Under the pieces are notes generated by a model. It did no database searches and had not been told where the DNA came from. It was given only the letters and a program-made list of their open reading frames with translations. From an uncultured Acidobacteriota bacterium (GTDB lineage Bacteria; Acidobacteriota; Thermoanaerobaculia; Multivoradales; UBA5704), in the NCBI GenBank assembly GCA_963770895.1, contig CAVYRF010000002.1, positions 2,144,001 to 2,208,000 of the forward strand: a stretch of DNA of 64,000 nt. The letters run 5' to 3'. A program made the translations under genes and the position numbers. Shown piece by piece: positions 27,439 through 64,000 of the stretch. Position 1 is the stretch's first letter, and every line of letters starts with the position of its first letter.

Positions 27439-30400
27439 ATGATAAATGATCAATTCCCCGCGGGATCTGCGCGCGACGCGGCGGAGCCGCTCTCCCAGGG
27501 CCAGCGCTCACTCTGGTTTCTGCACCATCTCGCACCCGAAGGCGGCGCCTACAACATCGCGGCGGCGGCGCGCGTGCGCACGCCGATCGACGGCGCGGCG
27601 CTGGCGCGCGCGGCGCAGGCGCTGGTCGACCGCCATGCGGCGCTGCGCACCACCTTTCCGGCCGTCGACGGCGAGCCGCGGCAGCGCACGGCCGAGCGGC
27701 TGACCTTCACCCTCGGCCGCGAGGACACGACCGGCTGGAGCGCGGCGCGCCTCGCCGCGCGTCTGGCGGCGGAAGCCTGGGCCCCGTTCGACCTCGAGCG
27801 CGGGCCGCTGCTGCGCCTCACGCTGCTTGCGGGCGACGCGCCGGACCCGGTGCTGCTGCTGGTCATCCACCACATCGTGGCGGACTTCTGGTCGCTCGCC
27901 ATCCTGATGCGCGAGCTGCCGGCGCTCTACCGCGAGGCGGCGGGCGGCACGCCCGCGGGGCTCGCTCCCCCGGGGGCCGACTACGCTCTGCACGTGCGCC
28001 AGGAGCGCGAGTTTCTCGCCGGCCGCGACGGCGACGATCGGCTCTCCTACTGGCGGCAGCGGCTCGCGGGTCTGCCGACGCTCGAGCTTGCCACCGACCG
28101 GCCGCGCCCCGCGGTGCAGACCTATCGCGGCGACGCCCGCCGGCTGCGGCTGCCGGCTTCGCTCGCCGCCGACCTGCGCGCCGACAGCCGCCGGCGGCAC
28201 GGGACGCTGTTCATGACCCTGGTGGCCGGCTGGCAGGCGCTTCTCGGCCGCCACACCGGCCAGGAAGACCTGGCCATCGGCACTCAGCGCGCCGGGCGCG
28301 CGCAGTCGCAGTTCGCCGGCACGGTCGGCTACTTCGTCAACTCGGTGGTGCTGCGCGGCGACCTCGCCGGCGACCCGGGCTTCGGTGACCTCTTCGAGCG
28401 CGCCCGCGCCACGGTGCTCGCGGCGTTCGACCAGGAGTACCCGCTGCCGCTGCTGGCCGAGCACCTGTTGCCCGAGCGCGACTCGAGCCGCACGCCGTTT
28501 TTCCAGACGTCGCTGGTGCTGCAAAAGGAGTCGCGGGGTGTCGCGGGGCTCACCGCCTTTTCCTTGGGCGAAAAGGGCGTGGAGATCGACCTGGGCACGC
28601 TGCGGCTCGACTCGCTCTCCCTCGATCCGGCGCCCGCCCCCTTCGACCTGCTGTTGCACGCGGTCGAGCGCCAGGGAGAGCTCCACCTTTCCCTGCAATT
28701 CAACGCCGACCTCTTCGACGGCGCGACGGCGGTGCGCCTCCTGGCCCACTTCACCCATCTCCTGCGCTCGGCCGTCGCGAGCCCCGACCTGGCGCTCTCG
28801 GCCCTGCCGCTGCTGGCGCCGGCGGAGCGCCAGCAGCTGCTCGCCGAATGGAACGACACCGCGGGTGCCGGCGGCGAGCAGACCCTGTTCGACCTGTTCG
28901 CCGCCCAGGCGGCGCGGACGCCTGCGGCCGAGGCATTGGTGTTCGAAGGCGAGCGCCTCAGCTATGCCGAGCTCGCGGCACGCGTCGCGGCCCTCGCCGG
29001 CCGCTTGGCCGCCCTGGGAGTGGGGCCGGAAGTGCTGGTGGGGGTCGCGGCCGAGCGCTCGGTCGAGCTGGTCGTCGGTCTGCTCGGCGTCCTCGCGGCC
29101 GGCGGCGCCTACGTGCCGCTGGAGCCGGGCCTGCCGAGCCAGCGCCTGGCGGCGATCCTCGCCGACGCGCGCCCCGCCGTCGTCCTCGCCCGCCAGGCCG
29201 AGGCGGGCGCGCTGCCGCTCGACGCCTCCCCCGGCGCCCGCCTCGCCTGGCTCGACGAGCCCGCCGCTCCCGCCGGCCCCACTGCGCCCACCGATTCCGC
29301 CGCTGCCGCCGCACCCGCCGCTGCCGCCGGCATCGCGCCCGTCCGGGCGGCGACGGCCGACAACGCCGCCTACGTGATCTTCACCTCGGGCTCGACCGGG
29401 CGGCCGAAGGGGGTGGTGAACAGCCATCGCGGCATCGTCAACCGGCTGCTCTGGATGCAGGAGGCGTTTGCCTTAGGCCCCGGCGACCGGGTGCTGCAAA
29501 AGACGCCATTCGGCTTCGACGTCTCGGTCTGGGAGCTGTTCGCCCCGCTGGTGACCGGCGGCTGCCTGGTCGTCGCCCGTCCGGACGGCCACCGCGACGG
29601 CGCCTATCTCGCCGCCCTGGTCGAGCGCGAGGCCATCACCACGCTTCACTTCGTGCCCTCGATGCTGCCGTTCTTCCTCGCCGAGGACCTGGCTGGCTGC
29701 CGCGCGCTGCGCCGCGTCGTCGTCAGCGGCGAGGCGCTGCCGTGGGAGGTGGAGCAGCGCGCCCTCGCCCTCCTCCCGGCGCCGCTCTACAACCTCTATG
29801 GACCGACCGAGGCCGCCGTCGAGGTGACCGCCTGGGCCTGCGAGCCCGCAGCCCAGCCGCGCGCCGTGCCGATCGGCCGGCCGATCCGCAATACGCGCAT
29901 CCATCTGGTCGGCCCGCGCCTCGAGGCGATGCCGCTCGGGGCGGCAGGGGAGCTGGCGATCGGCGGCGTGCAGGTCGCCCGCGGCTATGTCGGCCGCCCC
30001 GACCTGACGGCCGAGCGCTTCGTCCCCGACCCTCACGGCGGCACTCCGGGCGGGCGCCTCTATCGCACCGGCGACCTCTGCCGGCACCTGCCGGGCGGCG
30101 AGATCGAGTACCTCGGGCGGCTCGACGACCAGGTCAAGATCCGCGGCTTCCGCATCGAGCCGCGCGAGATCGAGCTGGCGCTCGCCGCCCATCCGGCGGT
30201 GCGCGAGGCGGCGGTGGTGGCGCGCCAGGATGGCAGCGGCGAGCGGTCGCTCCTCGCCTGCGTGGTGACCTGGGAGGGCGAGGCGGCGGCCGCCGGCGCC
30301 TTGCAGCTGAGCGAATTCCTCGCCGCCCGGCTGCCGCCCTACATGGTGCCGGCCTTCGCCTTCGGCCAGGCGCTCGACCGCCTGCCCAACGGCAAGCTCG

Positions 30401-30690
30401 ATCGGCGGGCGCTCGCACGGTGGACGCCCGCCGCCGCGCCCGAGCGCGCCGCCGCCACCCGAGCCGCGCTCACGCCGCTCGCCGAGGTGCTCGCCGGCCT
30501 CTTCGCCGATGTCCTCGGCGTCGAACGGATCGGGGTGAACGACAGCTTCTTCGAGCACGGCGGCCACTCGCTCGCGGCGATGCGGCTGTCGGCGCGCGTG
30601 CGCGAGACCCTGGGCGTCGAGCTGTCGGTGCATCGGATCTTCGACCTGCCGACCGTCACCGCGCTCGTCCAGGCGATCGAGGGCGAGACC
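27439..30690 (+). other. NRPS module 1: C-A(Ser)-T
   Basis: [20 protein letters not shown]; hand-read code DVWHVSLVEK. Confidence 0.8.
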
Positions 30691-63600: not shown

Positions 63601-64000
63601 CCACGGAGCTGCGCGAGGCGCTGCGCCGGGTGCTGCCGGAGTACATGATCCCCGCCGCCTTCGTCAGCCTCGCCGAGCTGCCGGTGACCGCCAACGGCAA
63701 GCTCGACCGCCAGGCCCTGCCGGCGCCGGCGCGCAAGGAGCCGGCGACGGCAGCCGCGATGGCGCGGACGGACGTCGAGCGGGTGCTGGCGGCGCTGTTC
63801 GCCGAGGTGCTCAAGGTCGAGCGGGTAGGCATCGAGGAGAGCTTCTTCGAGCTGGGCGGCCACTCGCTGCTCGCGACGCAGGTGATCGCCCGCCTGCGCC
63901 AGGCGCTGGGGGTCGATCTGCCGCTGCGCGTCTTCTTCGAGATGCCGACGGTAGCGGCCCTGGCGGTCGAGATCGAGCGCCTGCGGCGCGACGCGGGCGG
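27439..64000 (+). CDS. Giant nonribosomal peptide synthetase, at least 11 modules, one frameshift near 32151, 3' end beyond the window
   Basis: 11 C domains (HHxxxD), 11 A domains and 11 T domains (GGHS Ser codons at 30568, 33777, 37038, 40302, 43527, 46734, 49968, 53211, 56508, 59814, 63864); frame 1 to about 32154, then frame 3 with no reported stop to 64000. Confidence 0.95.
30691..33900 (+). other. NRPS module 2: C-A(Thr)-T (contains the frameshift)
   Basis: [32 protein letters not shown] give DFWNIGMVHK, the canonical Thr code. Confidence 0.88.
33901..37160 (+). other. NRPS module 3: C-A(Arg/basic)-T
   Basis: [31 protein letters not shown] give DVEDVGAISK, an acidic pocket like Arg/Lys codes. 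Confidence 0.6.
37161..46860 (+). repeat. NRPS modules 4-6: three tandem C-A(Ile-like)-T modules with near-identical A domains
   Basis: Code DAYFLGVTFK in all three; period 3225 then about 3210 bp. Confidence 0.85.
46861..50095 (+). other. NRPS module 7: C-A(Ser)-T; a3 motif reads TGKPNG
   Basis: Code DVWHMSLVDK; AAT at 48810-48812. Confidence 0.85.
50096..53340 (+). other. NRPS module 8: C-A(Ile-like)-T
   Basis: Code DAYFLGVTYK; diverged paralogue of modules 4-6. Confidence 0.75.
53341..56635 (+). other. NRPS module 9: C-A(unusual, probably acidic substrate)-T
   Basis: [32 protein letters not shown] give DARHFALLVK. Confidence 0.6.
56636..59940 (+). other. NRPS module 10: C-A(Ser)-T; A domain is a near copy of module 7
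   Basis: Code DVWHMSLVDK; offset 9795 bp from module 7. Confidence 0.85.
59941..64000 (+). other. NRPS module 11: C-A(Cys, interrupted by methyltransferase between a2 and a3)-T
   Basis: [11 protein letters not shown] (a2), then MT ([32 protein letters not shown]; about 61790-62520), then [14 protein letters not shown] (a3); code DLYDLSLVWK. Confidence 0.85.

Follow-up and report, generated by a model that had tools for sequence, protein, structure and literature searches.

How a nonribosomal peptide synthetase (NRPS) of more than 12,000 residues starts and releases its product without a thioesterase (TE), and whether so long a protein is encoded as one gene at all, are questions raised by a 64,000-nucleotide stretch (hereafter the window) of an uncultured soil Acidobacteriota genome (contig CAVYRF010000002.1, positions 2,144,001 to 2,208,000; G000:C2:2144001-2208000). 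The genome comprises 8.16 Mb in three contigs with 71% GC. From position 27439 to its end, the window is occupied by NRPS modules built of condensation (C), adenylation (A) and carrier (T) domains. These are read here, with a probability of roughly 0.6, as one gene of ~12,680 residues with the layout Cstarter-A-T, nine C-A-T, C-A(S-methyltransferase)-T-Cterminal, and the product is probably a fatty-acid-capped 11-residue peptide.

Extent and domain organisation of the synthetase

Frame 1 of the + strand is open from 27439 to 32166 (1,575 aa), and frame 3 is free of stops from before 32148 through the window end (10,617 codons), with a slip of one base between the two that is weighed below. Past the window, the same frame stays open for another 1,474 bases and ends at a stop whose extrapolated window coordinate is 65474, giving 11,108 codons without a stop downstream of the slip and a read-through protein of 12,678 residues (X at the break). 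A first interpretation made from the letters of the window alone (below, the original prediction) had counted over 12,000 residues, which holds, and had left the 3' end of the gene outside the window; the gene stops 1.5 kb past the window after a twelfth, terminal C domain. It had also found the gene largely missing from the list of open reading frames (ORFs). The frame runs off the end of the source sequence, and such ORFs are listed only as open-ended; once they are included, a 3'-open ORF appears at 32247..63998. GC content climbs to 75-76% from 28 kb of the window onward, and the three codon positions have GC fractions of 0.79/0.51/0.95 across 11,075 codons.

Pfam searches with 12 module-sized pieces returned Condensation, AMP-binding, AMP-binding_C and PP-binding in order in 11/11 modules, in agreement with the eleven complete C-A-T modules predicted originally between 27439 and the window end. 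The profiles are covered almost from end to end (C domains ~3-456 of 456; A domains ~1-384 of 384), and with domain E-values all within 1e-8 to 1e-107 the pattern is far beyond chance. Motif scans recovered 12 HHxxxD active sites, 11 A8 motifs and 11 GGHSL carrier motifs, and the A10 lysine is present in all 11 aligned A domains. With repeated C-A-T modules and intact catalytic core motifs, this is a modular (type I) NRPS. Apart from the methyltransferase families of module 11, no family other than those of C, A and T domains was found in the Pfam pieces. Motif scans found neither thioesterase-type nor epimerase-type motifs in the gene, and the earlier observation of no epimerisation (E) or TE domain also holds for the 1,474 bases beyond the window. 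Feature coordinates are collected in Table 1.

Several modules are recent internal duplications. In blastn comparisons between modules, modules 5 and 6 share 93.6% and modules 4 and 5 share 89% DNA identity over ~3.2 kb, modules 4 and 8 share 83% over ~3 kb, and modules 7 and 10 share 86% over 2.3 kb. Repeats of this kind also carry a risk of mis-assembly. No clear whole-gene orthologue was found among 41 relatives, many of whose assemblies are fragmented.

Overall, the enzyme resembles a canonical colinear lipopeptide NRPS with three less common parts: a starter C domain without a carrier in front of it, a TioN-type S-methylating A domain, and a terminal C domain. In the proposed mechanism, the first C domain (C1) would take an acyl group from a free acyl carrier protein (ACP) or acyl-CoA and acylate Ser1. 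Ten LCL-type C domains would then extend the chain colinearly, and the embedded methyltransferase would S-methylate cysteine on its carrier. Release of the chain would finally fall to the twelfth C domain (C12), whose HHxxxD site is intact and which lacks an A-T partner; the attacking group would be either an internal nucleophile (a hydroxyl of Ser/Thr or of a lipid, or a basic side chain) or a free amine.

Table 1 Features of the NRPS locus (window coordinates; domain limits from Pfam)
Feature	Position	Strand	Domains or remarks	Specificity code	Substrate call
Class I SAM (S-adenosylmethionine) methyltransferase	26459..27343	-	Methyltransf_11 7.3e-16, Methyltransf_25 7.9e-13		
Module 1	27439..30678	+	C 27487-28842, A 28897-30387, T 30487-30678	DVWHVSLVEK	Ser-like
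Module 2	30736..33887	+	C 30736-32070, A ~32085-33602, T 33705-33887; frame 1 up to 32151, frame 3 from 32154	DFWNIGMVHK	Thr
Frame slip	32147..32154	+	CCCCGGGG run, one base, frame 1 to frame 3		
Module 3	33993..37145	+	C 33993-35327, A 35385-36872, T 36963-37145	DVEDVGAISK	Arg-like
Modules 4, 5, 6	37212..46844	+	three near-identical C-A-T	DAYFLGVTFK each	Ile-like, Val possible
Module 7	46932..50078	+	C-A-T	DVWHMSLVDK	Ser
Module 8	50142..53321	+	C-A-T	DAYFLGVTYK	Ile-like
Module 9	53433..56615	+	C-A-T, divergent 'C9 type' C domain	DARHFALLVK	no call
Module 10	56694..59921	+	C-A-T	DVWHMSLVDK	Ser
Module 11	59982..63965	+	C 59982-61325, A C-part 62631-63701, T 63783-63965	DLYDLSLVWK	Cys-like
Linker	63966..64000	+	gene leaves the window here		
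Terminal C ('C12 type')	L001:1050-2354 = extrapolated 64050-65354	+	directly after the eleventh carrier		

Specificity codes and predicted peptide

The cores of the 11 A domains were aligned, and the ten Stachelhaus positions were read by hand from motif anchors. The anchors are regarded as validated because the threonine code and two serine codes come out exact: the code of module 2 is identical to the Thr code printed in PMC12283262, and that shared by modules 7 and 10 to one listed there as activating Ser/Dha (Dha, dehydroalanine). The other assignments are nearest matches to entries of the same source. Module 3 fits 9/10 positions of its Arg consensus (D, A/V, E, D, I/V/L, G, A, V/I, T/D, K). 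Compared with the commonest Ile code given there (DAMFLGCTYK), module 8 agrees at 8/10 and modules 4-6 at 7/10 positions, against 5 to 6 of 10 for these four modules and the commonest Val code, while the code of module 11 agrees at 8/10 positions with DLYNLSLIWK. The hand-read codes of the original prediction were therefore essentially right, with exact Thr and Ser (modules 7 and 10) codes, an Arg code at 9/10 and nearest matches for the Ile-like and Cys-like ones. Among solved structures, the A domain of module 4 was closest to the first LgrA A domain (219-676), and those of modules 3 and 9 to the second (1233-1708), which gave no help for module 9.

Taken in order, the codes predict the chain acyl-Ser-Thr-Arg(like)-Ile/Val-Ile/Val-Ile/Val-Ser-Ile/Val-X-Ser-Cys. 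A search of the open-access literature with tetrapeptide strings of this sequence found no published peptide. As a near-complete colinear prediction of a lipo-undecapeptide with a C-terminal S-methyl-cysteine, it would suit synthesis-first (synBNP-type) discovery.

Position X belongs to module 9, which has the lowest A score of all modules (226 bits, Pfam). Its C domain is 42-45% identical to the other internal C domains in an identity matrix and belongs to a clade with 4 members in the genome. An exact-code search of the open-access literature gave no match for its code; of the six codes compared in this way, only the Ser code turned up. The acidic residue proposed originally for this position is a guess based solely on an Arg at position 239. 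A module of this kind, with a divergent C9-type C domain and an A domain coded DARHF..L.K, recurs in the genome and in relatives (window 53433-56615; G000:C2:4324192-4356627; L021, L022, L034, L016), and a paralogous line carries the related code DARHFVFLIK. In that paralogous line, and in 3/4 relatives with enough upstream sequence, the C9-type/DARHF module is the last before a terminal C domain of the C12 type.

Module 11 and its predicted S-methylation

In module 11, Pfam detects AMP-binding in two stretches together with Methyltransf_25/23/11/12/31. The methyltransferase (Pfam core 61908-62306) interrupts the A domain between core motifs a2 and a3: the second AMP-binding stretch begins at profile position 155, and the methyltransferase lies between the stretches, upstream of A3. 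As described by Lundy et al. 2020 (PMC8341866), type IV inserts at the a2-a3 site methylate the sulfur of Cys, as in TioN, and type V inserts methylate the backbone nitrogen. All three of the type IV Ms(S,a2-a3) motifs given in that source occur in the insert, ELGYRYD among them, and the motif ASTVQF shows the diagnostic Ala where N-methylating inserts carry Asn. No type V motif was found in the insert. The distance from the C-domain His motif to A3 is 765 aa, vs 477-480 aa where no insert is present (modules 3 and 4), which leaves ~285 extra residues, the upper bound of the 260 +/- 25 aa that characterise the A2-Ms(S)-A3 family. The best solved relative of the insert is the interrupted A domain of TioS (5WMM).

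Judged by insert site, motifs and size, module 11 is assigned to family 3 of the interrupted A domains, A2-Ms(S)-A3 (TioN type). Because all three type IV motifs are present in the insert, residue 11 is predicted to be S-methyl-cysteine, which bears out and sharpens the methylated cysteine of the original prediction. For carrier-bound L-Cys as the substrate, the sole support is the Cys-like code of the module. The A(MT) module, where MT stands for methyltransferase, recurs in many relatives at 55-80% identity; for the A(MT)-T piece of module 11, the best matches in the 41 relatives are 76-80% identical and stand in other architectures.

First condensation domain and probable N-acylation

C1 starts at residue 17 of the protein, with the active site HHIVADF, and the ATG at 27439 lies ~2 codons after an in-frame stop (open frame ..NIM..). 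In a FastTree phylogeny of the 263 C domains of the genome that are >=330 aa long, C1 falls into a clade with a support of 0.998, of which 23/29 members are N-terminal in their open frames. All 18 C1-type domains carry HHxxxDF instead of HHxxxDG. A PP-binding domain directly precedes the C1-type domain in 11 of the 13 other N-terminal members, one of the 11 having a fatty-acyl-AMP-ligase (FAAL)-like domain as well, and a neighbouring NRPS also begins T-C. Since this clade context (N-terminal position, preceding acyl carrier) is one of lipoinitiation, C1 is likely a starter C domain and the product likely N-acylated, rather than the bare peptide proposed originally. For the sub-clade of C1, the acyl donor would have to be supplied in trans because these proteins have no carrier of their own; no such donor is encoded nearby.

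Terminal condensation domain and possible role in chain release

C12 matches the Pfam Condensation profile with 1.2e-72 and 245.6 bits (aa 336-770 of L001:45-2474), has the active site HHVASDWWS, and is 31-39% identical to the other eleven C domains of the protein. Two paralogues with ~73% identity exist in the genome; 3/3 copies end 0-21 aa before a stop, in lines that start with a C1-type domain, and no TE was found in these three lines. In the tree, the C12 clade is long-branched (support 1.0) and placed inside the LCL domains of its own genome.

The type is widespread in relatives. Across 92 family genomes, C12-type matches have 51-79% identity, well separated from the 39-45% of generic C domains. 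Among 10 C12-type domains in family loci, a stop comes 4-35 residues after 7 of them, and 1 runs off its contig. A pattern scan of species genomes recovered 15 loci with 65-78% identity, all of which end 1-45 residues after the domain, while the next-best loci (24-41% identity) are ordinary C domains of Actinomycetota. These 15 loci belong to metagenome-assembled genomes (MAGs) labelled Thermoanaerobaculia bacterium or, in one case, Holophagales bacterium UBA5704. Thermoanaerobaculia is a class of Acidobacteriota, and the Acidobacteriota-like host suggested originally fits all 15 of these close homologues. The motif HH..[SAF]D[WG]WS is kept in every C12-type copy examined. The C12-type clade is specific to Thermoanaerobaculia and nearly always ends NRPS proteins.

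A release role for C12 is, on balance, the slightly favoured interpretation of this position and conservation. Going further, C12-type domains might represent a lineage-specific bacterial chain-terminating C domain, a counterpart of the fungal CT domain that would have arisen independently from LCL domains within Thermoanaerobaculia, replaced the TE in three lines here and at least 22 protein ends in relatives, and released lipopeptides by cyclisation or aminolysis; this broader proposal is tentative and somewhat less likely to be right than wrong. In either case, the terminal C clade in the place of a TE, like the C9-type/'DARHF' module, is uncharacterised and recurrent in the genome and its relatives.

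A conserved TE acting in trans beside C12-type ends was considered and rejected: none of 13 ORFs downstream of such ends in relatives encodes a thioesterase or hydrolase, and the downstream genes are diverse. Two loci of a different kind were noted in the same genome. At G000:C2:4098638-4099107, an NRPS of 12,745 aa ends in a C domain and is followed by an ATGA-overlapping A-T-TE protein, and the last module appears naturally divided between its C and A domains at G000:C2:4099107. At G000:C2:4013104-4015752 (L057) lies an orphan gene for A-T-TE, with ~45 kb around it free of NRPS genes. As a trans partner of C12 this gene is not supported, since a search of 91 family genomes, some of them with several C12-type ends, gave no conserved orthologue: the best match has 52% identity and the others 38-46%, as is typical of generic termination modules.

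Internal condensation domains and stereochemistry

The internal C domains C2-C11 have similar N-termini and the active site HHxxxDG/A. On solved chains, a profile built from them scores highest on Txo2 (515 bits), Txo1 (514) and TycC (389), vs 187 bits for TycB1, 121 for CDA-C1 and 50-64 for E domains. Epimerisation domains are marked by a GGDSI-type carrier and by E-type motifs. None of EGHGR, FNYLG and GGDSI occurs in the gene, all 11 carriers read GGHSL, and the spacing of 196-218 aa between each T and the next C holds no extra domain. The dual E/C motif HH[I/L]xxxxGD (Rausch 2007, PMC1894796) is found in none of the 12 C domains, with a near-miss in C1 (HHLAPEGGA). Both Txo domains condense L-Ile donors with L-Ser, as reported in PMC8244413.

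An all-L peptide would be the default reading of these data but is unsafe because, according to PMC8244413, the synthetase of teixobactin yields four D residues although it is composed only of C, A, PCP (peptidyl carrier protein), MT and TE domains. Missing E domains are no sufficient ground for the all-L configuration proposed originally.

Weighing of alternative readings

Whether the synthetase is 'single', as predicted, depends on the frame slip: it is if the one-base slip is an assembly error, and it is not otherwise. The slip falls 25 residues after the start of the module 2 A domain and before its A1 core motif. In blastx against intact modules of the same protein, two high-scoring pairs in different frames are contiguous on the subject with a junction at ~32151, which confirms the break where it had been placed, with one base missing or two extra at 32147-32154. 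The run CCCCGGGG is a C4G4 homopolymer pair. The neighbouring NRPS has a slip in the same direction and at the equivalent A-domain place in CCCCCGGGGGG, a C5G6 pair. Across the NRPS genes of the genome, 37 same-strand junctions of adjacent open frames were counted (7 C/A, 3 T/T, 1 A/T, 11 C/C, 2 A/C, 1 C/T and 12 T/C); two-frame blastx resolved 3 of the 9 attempted, two as CnGn slips and one as a genuine ATGA-coupled gene boundary. Frameshifts are recognised as a problem of long-read metagenome assemblies in PMC12818350. A homopolymer error of the assembly is the likely cause of the slip, rather than decay, since no stop follows downstream, all domains are intact, GC at third codon positions (GC3) is 0.95, and a like slip occurs in the neighbouring NRPS. 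If the slip were real, the gene would be a recently inactivated pseudogene or would encode only a 1,575-aa C-A-T-C fragment, and no undecapeptide would be made. The assembly as given does carry the slip, several other NRPS genes of the genome are likewise frame-broken, and very NRPS-rich genomes may hold decaying copies. A natural division into two genes would lose the A1 motif because frame 3 offers no start codon between the preceding in-frame stop and GTG 32247, from which a second protein would lack the first ~55 A-domain residues. However, the 11,108 downstream codons, in which additional stops or frameshifts would have spoken for a decayed gene, contain neither, and their profile matches run from end to end; the two same-direction slips look like systematic base-calling error, and the at least 11 mid-module breaks in the ~0.9 Mb of NRPS genes in this 8.16-Mb genome would make a large share of its lines dead. 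A real slip is therefore considered unlikely. Slips at CnGn runs divide NRPS genes in this assembly and will lead automated calls of biosynthetic gene clusters (BGCs) astray.

Public sequencing data favour neither reading of the slip. Twenty public runs share part of the stretch, the best matching 0.52 of sampled words and none being listed as RNA; among contigs of four public runs over 30800-33500, none bridges 32147-32154, the nearest stopping at 32092 and 32147 and resuming at 32291 and 32360. Several observations weigh against reading the locus as a single-gene lipopeptide synthetase. A carrier domain is missing from C1 and from the two relatives nearest to it (78.5% and 65% identity), and no acyl-activating (FAAL/ACP) gene is present in window 1-27438, the 27 kb upstream. 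C1 is also nearer to solved LCL domains (Txo1 2e-70, TycC 4e-49) than to solved starters: the surfactin starter matches at 5e-16, and CDA-C1 is absent from the matches at E<=1e-10. Module 9 is without a substrate call, and D residues are conceivable, given the precedent of the teixobactin synthetase. At the C-terminal end, the tree neighbours of the C12 clade are protein-end C domains followed by A-starting frames; one C12-type domain continues in frame into a C9-type domain (T-C12-C9-A..., L016, G096:C62) and another locus is arranged C12-T-C12-stop (L015, G060:C227). The fungal CT structure 5DIJ is not among the 43 solved chains that match C12 at E<=1e-10. Finally, the ATGA-overlap boundary between C and A in this genome makes a trans A-T(-TE) partner possible.

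Some of these points would be accommodated if the line were spread over several proteins, with C12 as the C half of a split twelfth module whose A-T(-TE) part is encoded elsewhere, and/or with C1 receiving a peptide from another synthetase. The natural split with ATGA coupling, the tree neighbours of the terminal clade, the existence of an orphan A-T-TE gene, the LCL-like similarity of C1 and a C12-type end directly before an ORF that starts with a C1-type domain (L033) are all consistent with such an arrangement. An adjacent A-starting partner, however, follows 0/3 C12-type ends in the genome and 0/13 in relatives. NRPS genes lie downstream in only two cases, and both open new lines, one with FAAL-ACP-C and the other with a starter C. 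The orphan A-T-TE lacks the conservation expected of a partner, and C1-type domains follow acyl-carrier domains, not peptide modules, in the 11/13 cases mentioned, so a multi-protein line is quite improbable. Alternatively, C1 might be vestigial and the product an unacylated, all-L, linear or cyclic undecapeptide, as read originally; the lack of E domains and dual E/C motifs, the LCL-like internal C domains and the lack of a lipid-activating gene nearby agree with this. Yet the C1 clade keeps the catalytic HHxxxD in 18/18 members and is mostly coupled to acyl-carrier domains, and the absence of E domains is no guarantee of L residues according to the teixobactin account (PMC8244413), which makes this reading improbable.

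Comparison with known systems

One of the closest known systems is the teixobactin synthetase Txo1/Txo2 of Eleftheria terrae, which also has eleven modules of C, A and carrier domains with one methyltransferase and no E domain. Among solved structures, C1, C12 and the C2-C11 profile all find their best match in the C domains of its Ser modules, and teixobactin, as described in PMC8244413, shares Ile-Ile-Ser at residues 5-7 with the predicted peptide. In contrast, Txo consists of two proteins of ~6,400 aa, starts with A-MT-T without a starter C and ends in two thioesterases, and the remaining residue order differs. The two synthetases are not expected to form one gene-cluster family.

Module 11 resembles the A2-Ms(S)-A3 protein TioN of thiocoraline biosynthesis (PMC8341866) in its a2-a3 insert of ~285 aa, its three type IV motifs and its Cys-like code. 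It differs in that the predicted methylating A domain sits in an elongation module of a mega-synthetase and in that position 278 of the code is Asp, not Asn. Unlike this module, TioN itself is free-standing.

For the two ends of the protein, parallels are more distant. C1 is placed like the C domains of the surfactin and CDA lipoinitiation modules, at the very N-terminus of module 1, and its genomic kin follow FAAL/ACP, but similarity to those starters is low and the motif is HHxxADF here and HHxxxDG there. In the glidonin termination module C13-A*-T13-TE of Schlegelella brevitalea, a C domain adds putrescine, as reported in PMC10587159. C12 is likened to glidonin C13 by description, both being bacterial C domains at the end of a lipopeptide line that act, or in the case of C12 would act, on the finished peptidyl chain; C13 is followed by A*, T and TE, whereas nothing follows C12. 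Fungal CT domains cyclise their product (reviewed in PMC11546977), and like the CT of TqaA (PDB 5DIJ), C12 has a condensation fold directly after the last carrier, an HxxxD site and no thioesterase. Unlike it, C12 has no match to that structure at E<=1e-10 and branches inside bacterial LCL domains, and the same function would mean an independent origin.

Genomic context

The family UBA5704 of Acidobacteriota is reported as exceptionally BGC-rich in PMC12818350. Hidden Markov models built from this protein hit 277 A, 301 C-type, 267 T and 9 TE domains in the genome. Other giant open frames of 10,812, 11,003 and 12,745 aa occur there, and frames of 9,000-15,700 aa occur in relatives. Giant NRPS frames are thus common in the family, and this enzyme is unusually large but otherwise ordinary. 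In the BGC-rich acidobacterial genus Ca. Angelobacter, the largest ORF reported in PMC9723581 measures 24 kb, vs 38 kb for the present gene. Provided that the slip is an artefact, the enzyme would rank among the largest bacterial synthetases made as a single chain. Ca. Angelobacter itself is rejected as the host, its average GC being 55% and that of this genome 71%.

A separate six-module NRPS, the neighbour referred to above, occupies the region from 24 kb to 1.2 kb before the window start (L002:2023-14820 and L003:2211-12758). Its two frames, split by the C5G6 slip, read T-C(starter type)-A-T-T-C-A-T-C-A-T-C and A(FkbM-type methyltransferase)-T-C-A-T-C-A-T-TE.

The immediate flanks are not obviously biosynthetic. 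Upstream are a SAM methyltransferase gene, an AAA_21 ATPase and sugar-modification genes; downstream are a BNR-like protein, a luciferase-like monooxygenase, a HEAT-repeat protein and glycosyltransferases. The SAM methyltransferase gene is divergent from the NRPS, with the two starts 96 bases apart, and may be a tailoring gene or unrelated. An overlapping + strand ORF at 26453-27442 has no Pfam match. The ATPase (AAA_21/AAA_15, AbiEii-like; window 24530-25927) lies in a stretch of lower GC (65%) just upstream of the NRPS. Window 9693-17031 holds a sugar block with a GT2 glycosyltransferase, an NAD-dependent epimerase/dehydratase and a 742-aa protein whose C-terminal part is a DegT/DnrJ aminotransferase domain and whose N-terminal half is unassigned; the block probably serves a cell-surface polysaccharide and is not tied to the NRPS. 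Near the left end, window 1650-3650 encodes an FHA-GAF-SpoIIE (PP2C) phosphatase.

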